Shown here: piece after piece, positions 7,543 to 54,235 of the stretch
How the letters are laid out: each line of letters begins with the position of its first letter
Position numbering within the stretch: the first letter of the stretch is position 1
Source: Camelus ferus
Taxonomy: Eukaryota
Reading direction: 5' to 3'
Assembly (NCBI RefSeq): GCF_009834535.1
Contig: NC_045696.1
Location: forward strand, 12,774,001 to 12,838,000
Length of the DNA: 64,000 nt
The notes under the pieces: model-generated
Told to the model about the DNA's origin: nothing
The model's input: the letters and a program-made list of their open reading frames with translations, nothing else
Database searches by the model: none
Made by a program: the position numbers and the translations under genes

Positions 7543-7671
7543 GGGGGAAGGGTATAGCTCAGTGGTAGAGTGCATGCTTAGCCTGCATGAGGTCCTGGGT
7601 TCAATCCCCAGTGCCTCCATTAAAAACAAACAAACAAACCTAATCACCCCTCAAAATAAAACATATTTTAA
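7543..7671 (+). mobile_element. tRNA-Ala-derived SINE (camelid Vic-1-like) with 14-bp TSD
   Basis: GGGTATAGCTCAGTGGTAGAG...GGTTCAATCCC...CCTCCA head, A-rich tail, TSD AAAACACACCAAAG at 7527-7540 and 7672-7685. Confidence 0.9.
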
Positions 7672-16901: not shown

Positions 16902-19900
16902 GTATATTTCACCAATTAAATCTTTCATGTTTGTATCCCTAAATGGGCATATACTTTAATATGTAAAAATGGGATCAAAGTGTACATTATTGTTCTGTAA
17001 TTTGCATTTTAAATGTTTGTATTGCTATGTCATTTAATAGTTTTTATAACATTTTTAACAGCATGATATTTATTCCATTGATGTAAAAGACCATCGGTGC
17101 ATATTTCATGATTTATTTAGGTAATCCCCTACTATTAAAAACTTAGGTGATTTTTAACTTTTCAGTGTCATGAATGGAGTGATGGTAAACATTTTTGTAG
17201 CTACAACTCTGTGCACGTTCAGTTATCTTTTTGGTAGAGATCTTAGAATTAGAATTGCTGAATTAAATGATATAAATATTTTCAAGGCTTTTTTGGATCT
17301 ATCAAGCAAATTGCCCTTCAGAAATGTTTTACTAATTTACAGGGCTCTTAGCAGCATAACAAAGTGCCCATTTCTCTAAACCTTTATCAACATATGTCAG
17401 TATCATTTGTAAAAATCTTTGTTGATTTTGCTAGTTGAAACAGTATTTTCTTTCTTCAGTCTGTGTTTTTTGGACTACTTACTAGGATTTAGTAGTTTTT
17501 CACATGATCTCATCTGCATTTATATTCGAGTTCATTGGATATAAAGCTAATTGTGCTCCTTGATGAATTTCTAAACCTCCTGGGGACCTGAAAGAACTGA
17601 AGCCCTTTCGAGTGGCTTGCAAAACCCATTATTGACCTGGCCCCAATGGGGTTTTCAGTCTCAGGTCAAGCTGCTGATTTTTACATGTGTGACTGCCGTT
17701 CTGAGCAGACAGTAGGCACTTTTACATTTTACACCTCCATCCCTTTGTTCATGGGATGTGGCCTTTTCAGATTGTTCTTTATACTATGAAGTCATAGTTT
17801 AAAGTGTGAGCTTTGACATCAAAAGACTTGAGTCCAGATTCTGGCATAGCTTCTCAGTAGTTATGTGACCTTGGGCACTAAATCTGTGTTTTCTCATCTG
17901 TCATTAGGATGGTAGCATCTTCCTTCTAGGGTGGTTGTGTGGTTTAAATGAGATAATGTATGCAAACATATAGCACAGTGTTAGTGCTTAATCGATGTGA
18001 GAGGTTTTTCTATCTGTTTATACCTTCCAAGACTGTATAGACATTACCTCCCCTGTGAAACTTGCGTTGACTTTAGCCTTCTCTCCTGAGGCTGCTATAG
18101 CACATTTTAGAGATTCTTGTACATTTTTTTCTTTATTTGCCTCTCCTGCCAGAATGTGAGCTGCTCAAAGGAAGAGCTGTGAGTCAATCACTTTTAGGTT
18201 CACTGGCATGTGCCACAGTGCCGGGCCTGCAGTAGTTGTATTGCTGACTGGATGACGGACCTTCTCTGCAAACCTTTTACAATAAAGAGAATAATAGATC
18301 TGGGAAATAGATTGAAGTGAATTTGGGGTGGTGGTGGCTGTACCTAGGACTTCAAAAAAACAAACTTTCAAATTTATATAAAATCTCTTTCTCACATAGT
18401 CTCATAATCAAATATCAAAAATTTGTAAGTTTTCAGATTACCTAACAATTTGTTTATAGAATAAATTTATTTTTGAAGTTCAAATCAAGTGTAAGTTTTG
18501 AAATGAACTGAAGGAGTTCATATTTTACCTCATATATTCCTTTATTATTTGTTTTGATAGAACCTATATGCAGACACATCAGAAAAGGATTGGAACAAGG
18601 TAATTTGAAAAAGGCTTTAGTGAATGTGGAATGGAATATTTGCCAAGACTGTAAGACGGACAATAAAATAAAAGATAGATCTGAAGAAGAACCGGAAGAA
18701 AATCCTTCAGTTTGGCTGTGTCTTAAATGTGGCCATCAGGTATGCATAGATTTTTATTGATACGGGAGTTTATTAAACTCCTTGAACTTATTTTAGAAGA
18801 CACTACCTAAAAGAACAGTATGGGTGACCAGAATGTCAGCATAGGTCCTGTTTCCTGGGGAGCAGATTCTGAGACTGAGATCTGTGTGTGGATGCTTTAC
18901 TGGGGAGTGTTCTCAGTACCACACCAGGAAAACAGTGTGGGAAGCAGGCTTAGACAGAGGGAGAGCAAAGAGGCAGTGCTGTGAGGCCTCAGCTGATCCC
19001 TCAGTGAACTCTGACCTTCAGAGACATCTTGAATTGAGGCAAGGGGCCCGGCCTTTGCACCTGTGCGTAGACCAGTCATTGGTTGTGGGATCTTCCTGGG
19101 GAGGAGTAATCTTGGGCAAGGCAGCTTCCTTCCACTGAGGATAATTCCTGGGGATGGACAGACCTCGCTGTGAGCTGTCACTGGGCCACATTCCTGGCAG
19201 CTGGAGAAATGAATACCTTAGGGGGGTGGGGTGGAGTGGTATCTGGGTTACAGAACAGTTCACAGGTATTGCCATGGTGCTAAAGGTCAGGGCCTCTTTG
19301 TCAACCTTAGTGGTGGTTAAGTTAAGTTTATATGCTCAGAAACTGGGCTGTTAGGCAGTGGTAACGTTTTATAAAACTATAGTTTAATATAGGATATCAA
19401 CAGCCAGGATATTAACATTGTTACAATTCATCAGTCTTAATCAGAGCTCCCCAGTTTTACTTCTCTTCATTAGTGTGTGGGGATATGTGTGTTGTGCATG
19501 TGCGTATGTGTATGTTAAGTTCTGCTCAGTTTGTTGCCTTTGTAGATTTGTCTGTCCACCACCTCAATCAGGATACTGAGTAGTTCCAGCATCACATGGA
19601 TCCCTTGTGTTGCCTTTTTACAGTCATGCCCACTTCTCTACTGCCATTCCTCCCCCTATCCCCTTGCAACCACTAATCTGTTTTCTAGTTCTAAAATTTT
19701 GTCATTTCAAAAATGTTATGTAAATGGAGTCATGCTGTATACAACATTTTGAGATTGGCTTTTTTCACTTAGCATAATCACCTGAAGGTTCATCCAAGTC
19801 ATGCGTATTAGTAGTTTGTTCTTTTTGATTGCTGAGTAGTATTCCATGGTTTAGGTGTACCACAGTTCAACTGTTCACCTGTTGAAGAACATCTGGGTTT

Positions 19901-37900: not shown

Positions 37901-38440
37901 CTGAGAAAAGGGAGGAAACAGTCAAATTCAGACTCAAGATTTCTGCACTCTTGAAGATCAGAGACCCTTTGTGTAGTTTTAAAATTGTCTTGTGACGGGA
38001 CCTTCATAAATGGAACTAGAACTAACTTCTGAATTCTGTTCATTTTTAAAGAATGTTGCTGAAGAAAACACAAGGGTACTGTATTCCTTATACGGAGTCG
38101 TTGAACACAGTGGCACCATGCGCTCAGGGCATTATACCGCCTACGCCAAGGCAAGAACGGCCAGCAGTCATCTCTCCAATCTTGTTCTCCATGGTGACAT
38201 TCCACAAGGTAGGAGGTCCTGGAAAATTCTGGTATTCAGCATATTTACAGCAAAACCAGAAAATGATAAATTTGATCTTTCCATTTATACTTAATTTTAT
38301 TTTTCCTCTTGACAGATTTTGAAATGGAGTCAACCAAAGGGCAGTGGTTTCACATCAGCGACACACACGTGCAAGCTGTGTCTACAGCTAAAGTACTGAA
38401 CTCACAGGCTTACCTCCTGTTTTATGAGAGAATACTGTAA
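16841..38440 (+). CDS. USP16: Ubiquitin carboxyl-terminal hydrolase 16 (ZnF-UBP plus USP domain, histone H2A deubiquitinase); join(16841..16901,18561..18739,21443..21546,22333..22436,23337..23524,24097..24192,24789..24919,25228..25315,26360..26438,27767..27858,28247..28303,29258..29434,31229..31889,32971..33065,34006..34092,38052..38208,38316..38440), 2481 nt, 826 aa
   Basis: [18 protein letters not shown]...; ZnF-UBP ([28 protein letters not shown]); Cys box [12 protein letters not shown] (Cys codon 23501-23503, residue 205); QQDSQE; His box SGHY (38130-38132); ends [10 protein letters not shown]. All introns GT-AG with consistent phases. Confidence 0.97.
17790..17995 (+). mobile_element. 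MIR SINE
   Basis: TGTGACCTTGGGCA...TTTCTCATCTGT...TTAAATGAGATAATGTATG. Confidence 0.7.
18561..18739 (+). CDS. USP16: USP16 exon 3
   Basis: [10 protein letters not shown]...WLCLKCGHQ; ag|...|gtatgc. Confidence 0.95.
18830..19270. mobile_element. Old ERVL-type LTR (LTR16/LTR33-like) remnant
   Basis: GGAGCAGATTCTGAGACTGAGAT...TTTACTGGGGAGTG pattern. Confidence 0.45.
19380..20200 (-). mobile_element. Old L1M LINE 3' fragment
   Basis: CAACCACTAATCTG...TAAATGGAGTCAT...GCTGCTATGAACATTTGT...TTCCAGAGTGGCTGTAC. Confidence 0.75.
21443..21546 (+). CDS. USP16: USP16 exon 4
   Basis: [34 protein letters not shown]; |gtgagt. Confidence 0.95.
22333..22436 (+). CDS. USP16: USP16 exon 5
   Basis: [34 protein letters not shown]; |gtaaaa. 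Confidence 0.95.
23337..23524 (+). CDS. USP16: USP16 exon 6 (NAGNAG; alternative start 23340), contains the Cys box
   Basis: [10 protein letters not shown]...[19 protein letters not shown]|gtgcca. Confidence 0.95.
24097..24192 (+). CDS. USP16: USP16 exon 7
   Basis: [32 protein letters not shown]; |gtatgt. Confidence 0.95.
24789..24919 (+). CDS. USP16: USP16 exon 8
   Basis: [43 protein letters not shown]; |gtgagt. Confidence 0.95.
25228..25315 (+). CDS. USP16: USP16 exon 9
   Basis: [29 protein letters not shown]; |gttagc. Confidence 0.95.
26360..26438 (+). CDS. USP16: USP16 exon 10
   Basis: [26 protein letters not shown]; |gtaatg. Confidence 0.95.
26830..27020 (+). mobile_element. MER3-like hAT element
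   Basis: ACTTTCTGTGATGATGGA...GCCACATGTGGCTAC...TTGAAATGTGACTGGTGCAACTGAGGA. Confidence 0.7.
27767..27858 (+). CDS. USP16: USP16 exon 11
   Basis: [30 protein letters not shown]; |gtaagt. Confidence 0.95.
28247..28303 (+). CDS. USP16: USP16 exon 12
   Basis: [19 protein letters not shown]; |gtaaga. Confidence 0.95.
29258..29434 (+). CDS. USP16: USP16 exon 13
   Basis: [13 protein letters not shown]...[12 protein letters not shown]; |gtaggt. Confidence 0.95.
29700..30420 (-). mobile_element. Old L1ME-like fragment
   Basis: GTATTCCATT...TTGTACCAGTCTATATTCTCACCAGCAA...GGCCATTTGTGTTTCC. Confidence 0.6.
31229..31889 (+). CDS. USP16: USP16 exon 14
   Basis: [11 protein letters not shown]...[19 protein letters not shown]; |gtattt. 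Confidence 0.95.
32971..33065 (+). CDS. USP16: USP16 exon 15
   Basis: [32 protein letters not shown]; |gtaccc. Confidence 0.95.
34006..34092 (+). CDS. USP16: USP16 exon 16
   Basis: [29 protein letters not shown]; |gtaggt. Confidence 0.95.
34280..35420 (-). mobile_element. L2 LINE remnant
   Basis: CCAGGCAGAGGGAACAGC...GGGGAGCCCCTGAAG...TGAGTTCAGTTTTAG. Confidence 0.6.
35658..36098 (-). mobile_element. Internally deleted Tigger1-derived DNA transposon with both ends
   Basis: TA|CAGACATACTTC...GAGGAATGCCTG|TA: degenerate CAGGCATACCTC TIRs and a TA TSD. Confidence 0.85.
38052..38208 (+). CDS. USP16: USP16 exon 17 (His box)
   Basis: [31 protein letters not shown]...GDIPQ; |gtagga. Confidence 0.95.
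38316..38440 (+). CDS. USP16: USP16 exon 18 (last coding exon)
   Basis: [41 protein letters not shown]. Confidence 0.95.
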
Positions 38441-39843: not shown

Positions 39844-39849
39844 TTTATT
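39844..39849 (-). terminator. CCT8 polyadenylation signal AATAAA
   Basis: TTTATT on the plus strand about 130 nt past the stop codon. Confidence 0.7.
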
Positions 39850-39977: not shown

Positions 39978-40055
39978 TCAATCATTTTGGTCATCATCCC
40001 AGTCTTTCTTCCCACTTGGAGGCTTGGGCCCACCAGCTGGTTTTGCCATGATGAT
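39978..40055 (-). CDS. CCT8: CCT8 canonical last exon, coding part
   Basis: ttttgcag|IIMAKPAGGPKPPSGKKDWDDDQND*. Confidence 0.95.
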   Translation of the reverse strand: MIMAKPAGGPKPPSGKKDWDDDQND

Positions 40056-43000
40056 CTGCAAAACAAAATCCACGAGTATACTTACAAACTCAAGCTTCAG
40101 AGTGAAGAGAAAGAGTATTTTTCTAGTAGCTTAATTCAGTACTAAGCAACCATCGCCAATGAGCAATCTGTTACACACTGCATACGAAACACTAGCATAA
40201 TGTTTGTTAGCTTCCAGCAGTGACACTTTTCTGCTTTTGTGGACATCAACGGCAACTTAAAACTCACGCACATGACTGAAGGGCATTCTAAAACACGCAA
40301 TTCAACAACCCAGCGAGCTCAATGTGAAAAATATTTGCATGCATCACTGGTATAAATCAGTCAGTTTGGCACCTGATTTGCTTTTTATATATGAGATTCA
40401 TCTTGCCAACCATCTTTATCCCAATTTCCTTGTGGTTTAGGAGCTTTAGGTCCACCTGCCAGTTTTGCCATTATAATCTAAAATGGTCAATACATAAACA
40501 TATCAACACTGAAATTTTCTAATACCTGTAAATGAGAACCATTCAAGTGCAGGAAGTATGTGTTCATAAACAAACAAACAAAAAAAAAAATCCAAGCACC
40601 TAACTGCCTGGAAACTCACATGCCAGAAGCCTCTAATTTATCTAGAATGCACTAACCCAGCATTTTCCAAGTATGACCACTTAGCATTTTTAAAGAATTT
40701 ATGTTTGGGCCAAAAAAAGGGGAGGGTGGTAGCAGCTTTGGGCTCAAATAAATTTGGCATAAGTTCAAGTTAGTTGGCTTTCCTCAAAGAATTCTCAAAT
40801 TCTGATATACACACTGAATCTCAAAAACAGATAGTATTCAGTGCTTCTCAAATGTATGATTAAGAGATCTTTCTGTATAACATCAAGGGGCTTAGCTTTT
40901 GTCTGAAACACCACAAACCGAAAAATATCTTCACCACCACCTTCAATGGATTTCCTACCCCCTTTAAGAAGCTTCTTTCTTTCCTTAAACCTAAACCTGA
41001 AATTCTTCGAATAACATTTTAGCAACTGAGGGTAAATTCAGGCTGAATTAAAGGCATTATGTATAATTTTAGAACCTAAGTATAGTTCAAGAAAAAAGTA
41101 CCTAAAACAACAGTTATCAAACTTTAGTGGGCATCATAATCACCTGCAGGGCTTATTTAAAAAAGACTCTGGGCCTCTCTCCAGTTTCTGACTCAGTGGA
41201 TCCTGGACTCTATTTTTAACAAGTACTTAGGTGATGTTGACACTACTGATTTGGGGACAATTTGAGAACTAGTGAAGTAAGCACTTGAAGAAAGATTAAT
41301 CCAGCCCTACAACACTGTCCAGTGCTTAAAACTTGATGTACAAGTCCCTTTTCAGAATACATACAATACAAAATTAGGTACCACTATCTTAGAGTACAAG
41401 TTCATTATAGTAATACAAACTGGTTAATAAGTCAGATGGGGTCTTCAGATACGTTATTTTGCACACAGAGTGCCAAGGGCACCTAACAATGAACATTCTC
41501 CTAGGGTAAAACAAAACAGAGCCCTCTCAATTTAAAATCAAAATTCAGAAGCACCTGTGTGAGCAGGGCACTCAGTTATTAACAATATTGTCTTGCTTGG
41601 ATAACAGTCAAAAAGTTCCTTAGGAACTTCCTCCATTACAATTTCTGTTTACTGCTTGCTTCAGTCTACTTAGCTTCTCCTGTCTCCTTCTATTTTTGGT
41701 CCTCCTTTTTATTCTTAGCCACATGTTAACTTACAGAATAAACATTTCATTAAAGCTCCCATTATCCTTGTTTAAAACTCGAAAAACATACTCTTTCCAC
41801 TAAAAGCTATCTAATACACTGACATAAAAACACCCTACTAATAAATTCAGTACATGGACACCTGGCTTCTGTTTGATTATCTCCAGTGAGTTTGAACTGG
41901 ATCTACAGTTCCATTTTTCATCATCTCACCTAGTAAAAAGTTCTTCCTTTACTGAAACGAAATTTATTTTGCTGTAATTACAACCAACCGGTCCTTACTA
42001 TGCTGAGAGTAAGTCTAATTTCCTTTCCACTTCTATTTAAAATTTGCTTCTCCCAGGATTAACTTGGTATGATTTTCATTTAATGGATTTATACTGTGTC
42101 CCTATAGCAATTAAAATTTTCTACTAAGTATTTAAAAATAATTCATTTTTAAATAATCCTTTCTAGAATTTTGTAGGGAACTAGATTTCAGTAACTTTAC
42201 TAGAAAACACATTTGGGACCATTAAATAAGGGCTGCTTGCACACAAACACCACAATACCATGAGAGTGAATCTGACAACTGAAATGGCTGTGTCCTGGAC
42301 AGGCAGCGTACACACAGGGCTATGCCAGACACAGGGACGACTCATGTCTTGGAGCAGGATGACGCGAGATTTCATCATGCTAGTAAAGAGTGGCACATAC
42401 GTAAAACTTATGAATTATTTATTTCTAGGGTTTTTCACTTAATATTCTTGGACTATGGTTGACTCGTGGGTAAGCTGAAACCACAGGAAGCAAAACCACT
42501 ATACTGTAGTCTGCAATTTCTGCTTTGGGCTCTATGGCCCTTCCACATTCCATATTAATATTACACATTAGACTTCCTCTCCAGATTACTTGTACAAAGG
42601 GATTCTTAGGCTAGAAAGTCTTAAAAACTATGACTCTAAATCAGATTTGTTTTCCCCATTCCAGTTCCCAAATGGCAAAGGATTCTTTCACTGGAAAGAT
42701 CTTCATTTTTAAATTGGCTGAAATACATTCAATACTATATTTCTATAACAGAAGAAAAAAAATACAAATTCTCTTTTTTTGGGGGGAGGGCATTTCACTT
42801 TGAATAGAACAAAAACCGTGCTATGTTCTAGTTCCATGAGAATATACTTTACACTATATAAAAATCAGTGTTTTTAAAGATCAAACTCTCACTTCTCACT
42901 CACCTGATCCACCCTGAGTACAGTGACGGCAGCATTAGTGGCCAGCTTAATAGCCCAGTATTTTCCCAGGTAAGTATCCAGAACACCAGCTTCCAACATG

Positions 43001-46000
43001 TCCTTCACAGCAGGAACTTCAGCCTGTCAACACAAAACTATCTTCATTCCTTCATGTTAAGTGTTTATGTGAAAATATTTATACTCAGTAATAGAAACAC
43101 ATGGCTACTTAAATAAAACTAGAACAAGTAGCCAGGAAAAAGCACTATCCTATATACACTATAAAACAAACTTGAATAAAACAGAAGGAAAACTAACATT
43201 CTCTGTTGGACAAACTATATAAAAGCTAATTGTTATGAAAATCATTTGCTTACAAATCAGAACATCTGATTTTCCTTTCAAGCCTATATGTATATTTTTA
43301 AGTTGTGGATTCCCAAAACAAAATAATCACAGAGTTCCCCTCCCCTCCAAATACCTCAATATCTAATCCAACATTTTTATTTCCTTCTTGATGCACTGCA
43401 TAAAGTTTAGAGATTACTTCATTGGCCTTAACTCCAGAGTTTTCTGCCAGTGCCCGGGGAATAGCTTCAAATGCCTCAGCAAACTTCTTAATGGCATACT
43501 GTTCAAGTCCAGGGCATGTCTGAAACAAAAATGTGATTACTGAATTTTATTCAAGCAATGACAAGAACTCAGTTTATACAGAGAAAGCCATATACCTCTC
43601 CATATGACGTGATCTGTTTGGCTAACTCAATTTCTGTCGCTCCACCTCCGGGTACAAGACGTTTATCCTGCAACATGTAGTTTAAAAAAAAAAGTCACTA
43701 AGAAGCAGTTTCCACTTTCCTCATCTTTTTAGATTGTAGTACTCCACCAGACTAGTTTATAATCAATTACAAGTTTTATAAAATTCAAATTCCATTTACA
43801 AATTCCGTAAAAATGGAGTGCTTTGGACAGTTTTAATGCACATAATGTCTGGTATGTGAAAAAGGACCAAAGACAGGAATGGGACCATCACTGCACATTA
43901 TCTGTATTTCCACAGATGCAGCATTAACGACAGTGCTGAAGCAACTGAAGGTACATACATCATCACAACTGAAAACTACCATAAACTATCTTTAAAATAG
44001 TTAAAAAAAAAAAAAGACCTTGATTTGCTGTTTATTCCTTTGCATATTTCGTTTTAGAAAACTATCATATTCATCAGCAATGGACATTTAAATGCAGTCT
44101 TAAGAAAAAAGGTGCTTTGCTTTACATAAGCCATTGATTTTTTCATTTTGAAATTCTAAGAATGTTCAGCAGGCTGCCAGCCGTGTTTCTGAGGACTTAC
44201 AAATTAAGGCTACTGCTAATACTGACCCTTGTGAGAACTTTGAAGGTATTAACACCATCATCTACAGCCCTTTCTACATCATCCATCAGATTGTCTGTAG
44301 AGCCTCGAAGCACTATGGTAGAAATGGCACCATCTTCCTTTTCTGTTAATAAATTACATATATTTGGAAATTAATGAAAGAAAACAAACACCCCACACTT
44401 CACATACTACATATATCTTACCATTACTACTTACCATGCTTAAAAACCACCACTTGTGTATCTCCAACCTCTGAGAGGTAAACACTGTCACAACGCCCCA
44501 TTTCTTCAAGGACAGGAGGAGTCTGTGAGAAAATGACTCTTGTAATAAAAATAGTTCAAATAGGTTCAGCTACCTTTTAATACCCAGAACACATACCAAT
44601 CTAGGAAGAGCTGTTGCACCAACTGTTTTACATAGTCTTCTGAGATCCCATTTTGAGTTCAGCCTTTGAAAAAAAACAAAGACCTTAATAGATGTTTTAT
44701 TTCCATGAGATATCACAGTAAAATGCAGAGATTAAACAGGAAACTGTACACTGGGCCCCAATTCACATTCTTTTAACCCTGACGGTTCAAGCTCAGAATA
44801 GGTCTGGACTGCACTGTGCCAATCCAGTCACAGGTGTTTATGGCAGTAATCTAAAAATTGGGAGCGTTCAAGTCTCCATAGGATGTCAAGCTTATAGTTC
44901 TAAAACACTAAGGAACCCTGGTACATAGGACATTTTTGCTTTACTTTGGGCAACTGTGTTTTGTAAGAAAGCAAACAGCGATTTACTCTGCATGTCATAC
45001 TAGGTTATAGGACAGGTTGGAATGCGTATGGATTTAAAGTTATGTTCCTGACCCCACACTCTAGCTGACAGTGTGTATCAGGCTTGTGTCTGGTCTCTTA
45101 GGCTTTTCCTCTTGCCTGGAATGCTCTTCCCTCTTCAATTAACATCTGTTGACTGGTCCGTCAGCTCTCAGTCTAAATAAGTCTTCTCAGAGGTGCTTCC
45201 TGTCCCCGTAGATCAAGTTAAGTCCTCTTGCTATGTGATCTAATACGTTATATACGTTCCCCATTAACAGTCCTCATGGTGTGCTGAATTTGTCCAGTGT
45301 TTCACCACCCAAAAGCTATTTACAATCTAGGTTAACAGAATGCATCTCTCTCTTACCTCACCAACATGATATTGTATTTGTTTGCGTAATGAAGAGCCAT
45401 GTCTGCCACTTTGCCACCTGTTACTACGACGTTTGCACCAGTATCAGCGATCGCTTTGACTTGCGCATCCATGAGATTCTCTTCTCCCTTACTGAAGTTC
45501 ATCAGTTCTTCAGCAGTCTTTATCAATACAGTTCCCTAGCAAAACAAGCAAGGATTTTCTTTAAAAGCCATCTCACACTCTGGTGTTCAAAGTCACAGAA
45601 TAACATTTTACTGAAGAAATAACTTAAAAGATCTGGGAGGAAACATGAAGATAAATATGCACATATTACAAAGCAGAATACAAAAATCTATGGAATTAAC
45701 AGAAATTCTGCTCACTCCTAGATCAACTCTCCCCCAAATCCCAAAACTGATACATCTGCTCTCTGACAGGCACTTTGGTGGAAAAACTGGAGAAGTACTG
45801 CACTTTTAGATACACGAGGCAGGTGTCCCGGCATGTGTGTTTTGATAAATGTCAACTAGTACCAAAGCAACGTTGTGGGTCTCAAACATCTTCTAAACTG
45901 TGGACTAAATGACCAGCTCCATCCCTCACCCCAAGCCTGTGAAACTATTAAAACCATCAAGAACTCAGACTTCAAAAACCGTAGGGATAAAATCAGCAGT

Positions 46001-52000: not shown

Positions 52001-53315
52001 TTCAGGGTCTTGGTGCTTACTGGTCCCTCAGCCTGGAACACTTCTGCCTTTAATCTTGGCTGTTCTGCTACTAAGCACCAGGCTGAAAGTTCTTTCCTGA
52101 AAATTGTTCTATCTGCAGCAGCACCGCCCTTCCTCCTCTTTTTTTTTTTTTTTGGAGGCAGACTCTTATTTCCTTTATCATTATTTGAAATCACCCTTCT
52201 TGTTTATTTGATCATTTACTATTTCTGCCTCAGAAGAATAAAAACTACAGAAAGTTTTCAGCCTGACTTAAAAAATATCATTTTAATCAAAACTTTTCCA
52301 CCAATATTTGCACTAACTCTTGTTATTTACTACACTCATGTTATCCCAAAAGTGCATCCTTCCAACAAGAACCTAGTTTCCTAAAATCGTTACCATAATT
52401 GGAGCCATATTGATGGCTTTAAGCAAGCACAGAAAATCTGGGAGACAAAGAAACACAAGAGATACATTTCTCAGTAGTGCTTTAAGATGTTTTTTCAAAA
52501 ACCGTGCCTTTTAAATTACGTTCCAGGTCTCCCCATAAAACAAAACAGTTTTATTTAGGCCAGGATATCACTTACCCTGTGGTTTACAACTCTGGTCGTT
52601 ACAACTCTTTTCGTCCGGCTCCTCAATTTAAAGATGAAGAAACCAAGACCCAGAGGAATCAATTTTACACCAAGCTAGCTAACCTAAGTTGGGACCAGAA
52701 CCCATTCGGATTTAACTAGTGTTTCTCCTGCTATAATGCACTACTTCTGCGAATTAAACGGGGGAGCCCTCTGCTGCTCATTTGGGAAGAAGCTGCCAAG
52801 TACTGGTCCTTGGCCCTCTCCTCTCCGGACCACCGACTCCGTGAACTGTGTTAGTCGGCTTCGCAGTCCCCAAAGCAGGTTCACCCGGTTCACCCTCATA
52901 CTACCCTTCAGGTTGGTGAGCTTCATCAGCCCCGTTTTAAGGAAGGAGGGAAAGTGCACGAGAGGCCTTACTCCAGTCCGGCTAGGAAGTATGAAACGCA
53001 AACCCAGCAGCCTCGTCCCTCACCCGCCGCCTCTCTTCCCACCACCCTCTCCGGAGTGGGTAAAGAACCGAAAGGCCCGCAGGCCTCCGCGGCCGAGCCC
53101 CCGCAAGAACACCTCCCTTTCTGGAATCTTCTCTCCTCCGACCGCTGTGCCGGGGGAGCACGCCCGGCCCGTTAGTAGGCCCTTCTCCTTCACTGCGGCC
53201 GCCCGCAGCCTTACGCCGACTCTCCCACCTCACTCCCCCTTCCTCCATTCCTTACCTTCGCTCCTTCCTTGAGCATCTGGGCAAAGCCCGGGGCCTTGGG
53301 GACGTGAAGCGCCAT
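39978..53315 (-). CDS. CCT8: T-complex protein 1 subunit theta; join(complement(53256..53315,50677..50767,49880..49959,48365..48514,47713..47893,47540..47601,46459..46596,45357..45535,44597..44663,44435..44522,44227..44342,43596..43667,43355..43519,42904..43023,39978..40055)), 1647 nt, 548 aa
   Basis: MALHVPKAPGFAQMLKEGAKHFSGLEEAV...AYGPNGMNK...VTNDAATIL...VGDGTNFV (chaperonin ATP-binding motif)...VPGGGATE...KKDWDDDQND*; the length matches CCT8 as recalled. Confidence 0.97.
40385..40477 (-). CDS. CCT8: Putative alternative (duplicated) CCT8 C-terminal exon; would give a 553-aa isoform
   Basis: cattttag|IIMAKLAGGPKAPKPQGNWDKDGWQDESHI*; phase 0 like the canonical exon and clearly paralogous to it; candidate donor CAG|gtgcca at 40373/40372. 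Confidence 0.8.
   Translation of the reverse strand: MIMAKLAGGPKAPKPQGNWDKDGWQDESHI
41110..41272. mobile_element. MER5A-like element
   Basis: CAAACTTTAGTGGGCATCATAATCACCTGCAGGGCTT...TTTCTGACTCAGT...TTTGAGAAC. Confidence 0.65.
42190..42506. mobile_element. Tigger2/MER8-like DNA transposon remnant
   Basis: GAGATTTCATCATGCTA...AAAACTTATGAATT...GGTTGAC...CTGAAACC. Confidence 0.65.
42904..43023 (-). CDS. CCT8: CCT8 exon 14
   Basis: AEVPAVKDMLEAGVLDTYLGKYWAIKLATNAAVTVLRVDQ|gtgagt. Confidence 0.95.
43355..43519 (-). CDS. CCT8: CCT8 exon 13
   Basis: [29 protein letters not shown]...VGLDIE|gtattt. Confidence 0.95.
43596..43667 (-). CDS. CCT8: CCT8 exon 12
   Basis: DKRLVPGGGATEIELAKQITSYGE|gtatat. 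Confidence 0.95.
44227..44342 (-). CDS. CCT8: CCT8 exon 11
   Basis: EKEDGAISTIVLRGSTDNLMDDVERAVDDGVNTFKVLTR|gtcagt. Confidence 0.95.
44435..44522 (-). CDS. CCT8: CCT8 exon 10
   Basis: TPPVLEEMGRCDSVYLSEVGDTQVVVFKH|gtaagt. Confidence 0.95.
44597..44663 (-). CDS. CCT8: CCT8 exon 9
   Basis: LNSKWDLRRLCKTVGATALPRL|gtatgt. Confidence 0.95.
45357..45535 (-). CDS. CCT8: CCT8 exon 8
   Basis: GTVLIKTAEELMNFSKGEENLMDAQV...YNIMLV|gtaaga. Confidence 0.95.
46459..46596 (-). CDS. CCT8: CCT8 exon 7
   Basis: GSGVYSSSVLHGMVFKKETEGDI...FDGMITETK|gtatgt. Confidence 0.95.
47540..47601 (-). CDS. CCT8: CCT8 exon 6
   Basis: VSIFPDSGHFNVDNIRICKIL|gtaagt. Confidence 0.95.
47713..47893 (-). CDS. CCT8: CCT8 exon 5
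   Basis: VIEGYEIACRKA...LIAQAC|gtgagt. Confidence 0.95.
48040..48275 (+). mobile_element. MIR SINE
   Basis: GGCTTTGGAGACAG...TTTGAATCC...ACTTACTAGCT...AATGAGAT...GCCTGGCACA. Confidence 0.65.
48365..48514 (-). CDS. CCT8: CCT8 exon 4 (followed by a GC donor)
   Basis: VQHPAAKMIV...GDGTNFV...GLSVSE|gcaagt. Confidence 0.93.
49880..49959 (-). CDS. CCT8: CCT8 exon 3
   Basis: GMNKMVINHLEKLFVTNDAATILRELE|gtaagt. Confidence 0.95.
50677..50767 (-). CDS. CCT8: CCT8 exon 2
   Basis: HFSGLEEAVYRNIQACKELAQTTRTAYGPN. Confidence 0.95.
51430..51600 (-). mobile_element. MER3/MER33-like hAT element
   Basis: CCAATATAGTAGCCACTAGCCAC...CAAGTGCCC...ACATGTGGCTA. Confidence 0.6.
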
Positions 53316-53650
53316 GGCCACTCTGCAAGGAGCCGTTCACGCGCCCGCTCGGAAGACGCCGCAGGAAGCGAGAGGCGCGCACAGCCTCCTGGGAACGTAG
53401 CGTACGGCGGCCTCACGCTCTTCCTCTCCAGCCGGGCCCGCCCCTTCCCCTAGCCGCCTGGTTTGAAGCCTCGCGAGAAGTAGCAGTTCGCGCCGCCAGA
53501 ACTGAATTGACGATCCTCGATCTGGTCGATCGATCGGGCGGGTAGCGGGGCTCGCCTTCCGTTTTCCGGCGAACGCGCGTCCAGGCTGTCCGGCCACAGT
53601 GGCTCGCTGCTGGTTATTCTCTTTTCTTGGACCCTGCGGTTGGGACGCTT
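52950..53650 (-). promoter_or_regulatory. CpG-island promoter of CCT8
   Basis: CpG-rich; GC box CCCGCCCC at about 53436-53443; one-mismatch BANP-type palindrome CCTCGCGAGA at 53469-53478; pyrimidine-rich putative start CCTCTCGCTTCC at about 53375. Confidence 0.8.
53256..53315 (-). CDS. CCT8: CCT8 exon 1, coding part
   Basis: GCCATGG; MALHVPKAPGFAQMLKEGAK|gtaagg. Confidence 0.95.
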
Positions 53651-54235
53651 GTTTTGCCAGTTCTGAACTGGAAGCTAAGCTTTCTAAGATTAACTTGCGT
53701 GTAATCTTCCAGACCCACCCATATTATTAGGGCTGGTGTTTCCCTTCCCCCTTCTTCCCCAAGGCAGAGCAGTTGTCTCCACCCCCCTAAATCTGTAGGT
53801 GAGCTTCGGCTGTGACTTGGGCACTGTGGGGAGCGCTGGGGACTTGAAGGTGTTAATTAAAATCTGTAAGGGTCACTGCGTCCTGAGTGCTCATACGTGC
53901 CAGGCTCTGTTAATTGCTTTACGTGCGGTATTAGCTAATGGTCAGTCGTAACGAGTTAAATCTGATTGCTTCCAGTTGATAGAAAGGGAATCCGGAATTT
54001 AAAAACGGTAATTTGTACAAGATCATAGCGCTAGCCATGTGAAAGCCAGGGTTCATACCAGATTAGGTATAATATAATACCTAATTATATTACTATTTTC
54101 TGCTTTCTCTTGGACATACTAATCCCTTTTACTTTACCACAGATCTTTAAAACCTGACCTCTGTGTCTTCCCACATCAACATGTGGCTGATTTCAAAGTG
54201 ACTGAATGTTAGAATAATTTTAAGAATGATTTCAC

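Follow-up and report, generated by a model that had tools for sequence, protein, structure and literature searches.

Actin, tubulin and a wide range of further proteins are folded by the cytosolic chaperonin TRiC/CCT, which is commonly regarded as a single, fixed assembly of eight subunits. Recent cryo-electron microscopy work describes the C-terminal tails of the subunits as flexible segments that gather between the two rings, touch substrates and help to hold and guide them, with resolved C-terminal extensions in contact with tubulin and with tail roles that are subunit-specific (PMC10188570; bioRxiv 10.1101/2022.03.25.483853). Heterogeneity of TRiC is known through the paralogue CCT6B, which is called testis-specific in one preprint (bioRxiv 10.1101/2024.11.19.624414). 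Alternative tails encoded by homologous 3' exons are described for KRAS 4A/4B, where the two flexible C termini have been conserved over more than 450 million years, one form dominates and 4A is traced to an exon of a paralogous gene (PMC9882654). Here we analyse a 64-kb stretch of Camelus ferus DNA (contig NC_045696.1; hereafter the window, with coordinates counted over the whole stretch), which carries on its minus strand CCT8, the gene for the theta subunit of TRiC/CCT, and within the last intron of that gene a second copy of the start of its last coding exon. We conclude that this segment, named exon 14b below, is very probably a genuine alternative coding exon of CCT8.

Searching the window by tblastn with the 548- and 553-amino-acid (aa) database proteins places 15 CCT8 coding segments on the minus strand, from 53315 (the start of MALHVPKAPGF...) to 39981. 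The host gene is CCT8 (TCP-1 theta), as its exons translate to this protein along the whole length and PF00118 is present in all listed matches. Exon 14 ends at 42904 in phase 0 (...GAT CAG/gtgagt; slashes mark exon boundaries), the canonical last exon begins at 40055 behind the acceptor ttttgcag/ATC ATC ATG and has its stop at 39980-39978, and the additional segment opens at 40477 with cattttag/ATT ATA ATG GCA..., at a start-to-start distance of 422 nt from the canonical last exon (Table 1). An earlier note on this DNA had described 40373-40477 as a duplicate of the canonical last exon with a phase-0 AG acceptor and an open frame of 30 codons; the minus-strand sequence bears this out, the segment being a tandem copy of the start of that exon. 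Its counts were also reproduced: the two tails agree at 11 of their first 13 residues and align at W19, D20 and D22 with no gap, and of the shared residues that have degenerate codons (12), 8 are encoded by a different codon. Over 25 aligned codons the two tails share 14 residues and 43 of 75 bases, and the two exons are adjacent, have the same phase-0 acceptor and are separated by an intron of 317 nt, as expected for tandem-duplicated homologous exons. The acceptor regions (positions -25 to -3) of both are 65% pyrimidine. Within the 64-kb window, the canonical CCT8 protein matches the segment at E = 0.001 and the 553-aa database isoform matches it at 30 of 30 residues (E = 3.5e-15), so that the match is above chance. 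The splice junction proposed in the note, from 42904 to 40477, is in frame because exon 14 ends in phase 0, and the 553-aa CCT8 that it had derived from this junction is present in databases with a tail identical to that of the window.

Selection on the encoded peptide was assessed with orthologous genomic loci, found by scanning metagenomes with a degenerate pattern of the conserved residues. Of the four loci returned (L001 to L004), two were used. L004 is a genomic contig of a bird and has the order of the window, in which exon 14 is followed first by the alternative and then by the canonical exon; L003, a genomic contig of a fish, has exon 14 and the alternative exon. The remaining two (L001 and L002) were dropped as G+C-rich, intron-less loci with a non-vertebrate CCT8 end that fits the pattern only via a TGG after the stop. 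Nonsynonymous (dN) and synonymous (dS) distances were estimated by the Nei-Gojobori method over the 30 codons of exon 14b, a three-species estimate. Between window and bird we obtain dN 0.163 and dS 1.19, the ratio of about 0.14 being the outcome of a calculation that the earlier note had suggested; dN is 0.13-0.18 between the fish and either the window or the bird, with dS saturated. In exon 14b, synonymous changes are in excess over nonsynonymous ones (Fisher, p = 4.6e-4). The canonical exon gives dN 0.056 and dS 1.19 for window versus bird. In the window-bird alignment, dense matches are found only within the exon, and the loci do not align outside it.

With respect to taxonomic breadth, tail-region searches were run with a buffalo protein (248 matches at E <= 10 among 261 candidates, 120 listed) and a coelacanth protein (280 matches at E <= 1 among 795 candidates, 120 listed); pattern counts cover all proteins fetched, which are annotated proteins only. 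By pattern, an alternative-type tail is present in 80 of 247 and then in 120 of 351 fetched proteins. The mammals with such a tail include armadillo, primates, squirrel-like rodents and chinchilla; furthermore, it is found in birds (one cluster has 565 members), alligator, turtle, lizards and snakes, in frogs, a caecilian and the coelacanth, and in bowfin, eels, bony-tongues, herrings, carps, characins and many spiny-rayed fishes. Both tails are recorded within the same species in 11 species among the printed tails, from ray-finned fish to lizard (Anolis sagrei, Latimeria, Xenopus tropicalis, Nanorana, Pyxicephalus, Leptodactylus, Ascaphus, Pavo, two Alosa and Seriola). Only one tail is found in tunicates, crinoids and an acorn worm, and this, together with two tails across bony vertebrates, argues that the duplication predates the split between ray-finned and lobe-finned fishes. 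Among the matches listed there is no shark or lamprey row in which either tail was recognised, which is no evidence of absence.

Across 59 distinct alternative tails, I1, I2, K5, G8 and G9 are invariant, and W19 (58/59), D20 (58/59) and W24 (55/59) are nearly so. In mammals, 38 of 41 tails have a length of 30 residues and agree with that of the window at 25 to 30 of them; two strepsirrhine tails are one residue longer, and the horse tail has no stop. A decaying pseudo-exon is ruled out by dN/dS and by the breadth of clades. The earlier proposal of an old duplication kept by protein-level selection thus holds from ray-finned fishes to mammals, with dS near or at saturation and dN of 0.13-0.18, and we propose that the last coding exon was duplicated in tandem before the ray-finned/lobe-finned split and that exon 14b has been maintained by peptide-level selection since then.

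Length and sequence of the tail also vary between the major groups. The alternative tail of ray-finned fishes has five additional residues and a conserved end, ...PDKFDTHH (P0145, P0235, P0248-P0270), and that of the coelacanth is likewise extended (...SDQFNTQ); judged from these sequences, the tetrapod alternative tail seems to be a shortened version. The single tails of tunicates and crinoids (P0151-P0156, P0275) and of yeast (4v81_H) keep P-K-Q-x-G-x-W-D, as does the alternative exon of vertebrates; in their canonical exon, S/T-G-K-K-D-W-D takes its place. Compared with the consensus of each type, tunicate and crinoid tails fit the alternative slightly better than the canonical one (e.g., 19 versus 17 of 22 residues). 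The "alternative" copy may therefore be the more ancestral-looking of the two, by a difference that is too small to decide which is older.

The product of exon 14b is already present in protein databases. A query with the 40 residues of exon 14 matched 304 proteins at E <= 0.001 among 344 candidates, and 32 of the 120 listed matches have an alternative-type tail by our own count of C termini. Most entries with this tail are 553 aa long and bear the name "T-complex protein 1 subunit theta isoform X1". Clustered with the buffalo entry are the 553-aa proteins of Bos taurus (XP_005201176.1), Ovis aries (XP_012042114.1) and Bison, the entry A0A3Q1MTL6_BOVIN, and forms from cat, camel, pig, monkeys, marmot, ground squirrel and chinchilla; the bovid isoform X1 tails equal that of the window at 30 of 30 residues. 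In Xenopus tropicalis, a 554-aa protein with the alternative tail is a named RefSeq protein that also has a GenBank protein accession (NP_001007875.1 / AAH80140.1 / Q68ER1); the accession types indicate that the RefSeq entry is a reviewed one and that a cDNA clone was sequenced. The reference protein of zebrafish ends in the canonical tail. These isoform X1 and Xenopus records and the product of exon 14b are the same object, the 553/554-aa CCT8; the records do not say how the exon arose, how old it is, how it is laid out or what it does, and the mammalian ones are predictions. The exon is therefore not new, since annotation pipelines already list isoform X1: of the earlier note, which implied novelty and foresaw that an annotation might exist, the exon stands and the novelty does not.

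Use of both copies in transcripts is suggested for other species by database models, AAH80140.1 and two assembled contigs of cDNA size. One of these contigs encodes a 553-aa protein with a whale-type tail on 1736 nt (P0021) and the other a 558-aa fish form on 2064 nt (P0265), and contigs of these lengths can only be spliced RNA. With the 105-nt exon as query in a sequencing-run search, no RNA run was among the matches listed. Literature searches returned no account of a CCT8 tail isoform or of a CCT8 exon duplication; the only paper combining CCT8 with RBFOX and the only one combining it with PhyloCSF were both unrelated. The term "CCT8" is absent from the searchable supplement text of PMC8373072, PMC9741552 and PMC7561204, the last of these a splicing survey based on proteomics, and the supplements of PMC9013439, on unannotated duplicated exons, lay outside that search. 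The exon is already known to annotation pipelines and apparently not to the field.

The wording of the earlier note implies a second terminal exon; in this respect we depart from it, as the sequence around the segment points to an internal cassette of 105 nt with its own stop as the most likely layout. This reading rests on the GT that adjoins the segment, on the lack of any poly(A) hexamer in the following 317 nt, on a donor in the bird locus (GCA/GTAAGC, 6 nt past the alternative stop) and on a read-through model in the horse. The latter, a UniProt model of 577 aa (P0083), reads ...RHINSKSD and then HHGKASRWAQASKWEERLG, continuing from the alternative exon into exon 15 out of frame; 17 of its last 19 residues match exon 15 of the window in the third frame, and the residues at the join are those expected from the last bases of the cassette and the first bases of exon 15. 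Both exons are thus present in one model, and together with the GT after the exon in window and bird and the window intron without a poly(A) signal this does not fit mutually exclusive use. When exon 14b is skipped, exon 14 would join exon 15 and give the usual 548-aa protein. When it is included, translation would stop after 30 residues and give a 553-aa protein, in which the last 17 residues differ and a second conserved Trp is added; exon 15 would then become 3' untranslated region (UTR), and the mRNA would be predicted to escape nonsense-mediated decay (NMD). By the established rule, NMD is triggered when a premature stop precedes the last exon junction by more than about 50-55 nt; given the donors proposed here, the distance is only 12 nt (window) or 6 nt (bird), so that escape is to be expected.

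With respect to the tails as such, both theta tails share IIMAK-AGGPK-P and the W-D pair. Past residue 13, the canonical tail reads SGKKDWDDDQND, with a net charge of -3 and one Trp, and the alternative tail reads KPQGNWDKDGWQDESHI, with a net charge of -2, two Trp and five more residues. A ring with the alternative theta subunit would accordingly present another acidic and aromatic tail to the chamber floor, and a changed contact of the tail with substrates, neighbouring tails or a partner would be the most economical reading of these differences. In particular tissues the isoform could, as the earlier note supposed, alter how TRiC handles its substrates. The searchable sequences of solved TRiC structures all have the canonical tail, and no Protein Data Bank chain with the alternative tail was found; the matches to five CCT8 sequence sets (from yeast, bovine, human and other sources) are confined to the first 22 residues, which are shared (E 0.025-0.13). 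An AlphaFold2 model of the 553-aa isoform, built with 60 aligned alternative isoforms, is unreliable (mean predicted local distance difference test score 42.8, predicted template modelling score 0.32) and allows no conclusion on the tail.

A lead on regulation comes from the hexamer TGCATG, which lies 30 nt after the donor in the window and 42 nt after that in the bird, where another copy lies 20 nt upstream. The 13.6-kb gene in the window has three copies, and the probability of finding one by chance in the first 50 nt is about 0.009 for the window and about 0.048 for the bird. This weakly suggests RBFOX-type activation, i.e., that inclusion of the exon could be higher in muscle, heart and neurons. 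A further-reaching idea, which we put forward as speculation and think unlikely, is that vertebrates have retained two kinds of TRiC over more than 400 million years. Regulated switching of the theta tail, possibly RBFOX-driven in muscle, heart and neurons, would add a second invariant Trp in an acidic setting (G-x-W-D-K-D-x-W), and the chamber floor would then treat a particular substrate class differently, or the tail would recruit a reader of tryptophan-acidic motifs. The two W-acidic motifs could conceivably serve as ligands of a kinesin-light-chain-type reader.

Three other explanations of the segment were weighed against the selected coding cassette. If exon 14b were a poison exon, its inclusion would lower CCT8 output through the premature stop and its conservation would reflect regulation at the RNA level; a stop ahead of the normal one and a weak donor, as in many regulated exons, are what such an exon would have. 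We nevertheless consider this very improbable, as the stop falls within the zone where decay is not triggered in both window and bird and as it is the amino acids that are conserved and not the bases (dS 1.19 with the bird and saturated with the fish, at dN 0.13-0.18), with the peptide length class and the fixed W and D positions kept across vertebrates. It is also very improbable, in our assessment, that the segment is a terminal exon polyadenylated at a site of its own, in which case the choice of tail would be set by splicing and 3'-end formation competing with each other. The fish locus L003, where no canonical exon was found in the next 1.1 kb and no clear donor follows the stop, would agree with such an arrangement; it is contradicted by the absence of all 12 poly(A) hexamers from the 317 nt before exon 15 in the window, by the GT that follows the exon in window and bird, and by the horse model with both exons in one reading.

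Several observations weigh against a coding cassette that is conserved and in use throughout. The donor in the window (CAG/GTGCCA) is weak, weaker than that of exon 14 (CAG/GTGAGT), and no TGCATG occurs in the 300 nt past the fish exon (L003), so that the motif rests on two species, with nine motifs inspected. The horse copy lacks a stop and is changed at otherwise fixed positions (A4V, P10S), which may reflect relaxed constraint or lineage-specific decay of the isoform. For mouse, rat, hamster, vole, human and ape, no alternative tail is among the matches listed, where clustering at 90% identity could hide them. The counts of intact tails are biased upward, broken frames being under-represented in protein databases, and the mammalian records are pipeline predictions (XP_) that could propagate by homology; CCT8 is also missing from the searchable supplement text of the human tandem-duplicated exon catalogues (PMC8373072, PMC9741552). 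Part of this would be explained if the exon worked in fishes, frogs and birds and were a relic in mammals, where the isoform X1 records would be predictions carried over by homology and splicing would almost never include the exon. In favour of this, the mammalian records seen are without exception XP_ or automatic UniProt entries, the copy in the horse is damaged, and mammalian tails depart from the vertebrate consensus at L6, P15, N18, G23 and the final HI. Yet neutral drift over about 100 million years would not leave 38 of 41 mammalian tails, from armadillo to bovids, at 30 residues with 25 to 30 of them identical; a whale-type full-length form is found on the 1736-nt contig, and one of the listings of the exact bovid 553-aa sequence comes from a read assembly (P0206). 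We therefore consider a mammalian relic very improbable and retain a coding cassette under peptide-level selection as the reading of exon 14b.

Table 1. Features of the 3' end of CCT8 in the window (all on the minus strand; slashes mark exon boundaries)
Feature	Position	Strand	Basis or remark
CCT8 exon 14 (AEVPAVKDML...TVLRVDQ)	42904..43023	-	Sequence and tblastn; upstream splice partner of both tail exons
AG of alternative 3' splice site (cattttag/)	40478..40479	-	Sequence
Alternative exon 14b, 105 nt, read as a cassette (30 codons, stop and 12 bases)	40373..40477	-	30/30 match to 553-aa isoform X1 proteins
Coding part of exon 14b, IIMAKLAGGPKAPKPQGNWDKDGWQDESHI	40388..40477	-	Translation; dN/dS ~0.14 versus bird orthologue
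Stop codon TAA of the alternative isoform	40385..40387	-	12 nt upstream of the inferred exon end
GT of inferred 5' splice site (CAG/GTGCCA)	40371..40372	-	Adjoins 40373; horse model P0083 uses the same position
TGCATG, RBFOX-type element	40338..40343	-	30 nt downstream of the predicted donor
Intron between exon 14b and canonical last exon, 317 nt	40056..40372	-	0/12 poly(A)-signal hexamers
Canonical last exon 15, coding part (IIMAKPAGGPKPPSGKKDWDDDQND and stop TGA)	39978..40055	-	Sequence and tblastn; 3' UTR when 14b is included
AATAAA, likely shared poly(A) signal	39844..39849	-	129 nt past the canonical stop; position computed

Elsewhere in the window, G+C-rich long open frames on both strands at 52700-53700 surround the first CCT8 exon, as is typical of a CpG-island promoter. 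On the plus strand, open frames at 18512-18757 (match to zf-UBP, E 1.6e-4, which narrowly misses the Pfam cut-off) and at 38010-38291 (match to UCH, E 2.3e-8) point to a gene for a ubiquitin-specific protease that lies tail-to-tail with CCT8; this fits the USP16-CCT8 arrangement of mammals. A 172-aa open frame on the minus strand at 2414-2929, with matches to RWD (E 8.3e-6) and Prp3_C (E 2.8e-12), probably represents the final exon of a gene resembling RWDD2B. The only match of an Rfam scan of the window is tRNA-like (7548-7619, plus strand, 45.6 bits) and far from CCT8; a tRNA-derived short interspersed nuclear element is as likely here as a gene.

To the existing records, the present analysis adds the age of the exon, the evidence of selection, the cassette layout and the lead on its regulation. 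A natural second theta tail that has been selected from fishes to mammals is a ready-made experiment on the role of the tail, and the alternative theta tail is a candidate source of tissue-specific chaperonin behaviour. Should the speculation on two kinds of TRiC be true, the textbook TRiC of a single composition would be only the commoner of two natural forms.

When these results are placed beside the described systems, each shares some features with CCT8 and differs in others. In KRAS, inclusion of 4A brings its own stop and leaves 4B as UTR, a layout that would equal that of exons 14b and 15. Two homologous 3' exons swap a flexible tail on an unchanged folded core there as in CCT8; the KRAS tails differ in having a known membrane-targeting role, and the CCT8 duplicate differs in being plainly a copy of the neighbouring exon. 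Tandem-duplicated exon events such as SNAP25 5a/5b resemble the CCT8 pair in that the exons are adjacent, homologous, of the same phase, ancient and both selected, whereas they are mutually exclusive internal exons and the upstream copy in CCT8 carries a stop, so that both copies can share one mRNA (PMC8373072, PMC9741552, PMC2581893). NMD-coupled poison exons are, like exon 14b, cassettes with an earlier stop; unlike in these, the stop of exon 14b is too near the last junction (12 nt) and the conservation is at the protein and not at the nucleotide level. CCT6A/CCT6B is similar to the CCT8 tails in giving TRiC rings of different make-up, with the difference that a whole paralogous gene is used there, whereas in CCT8 only the last 17 residues are changed, by splicing.

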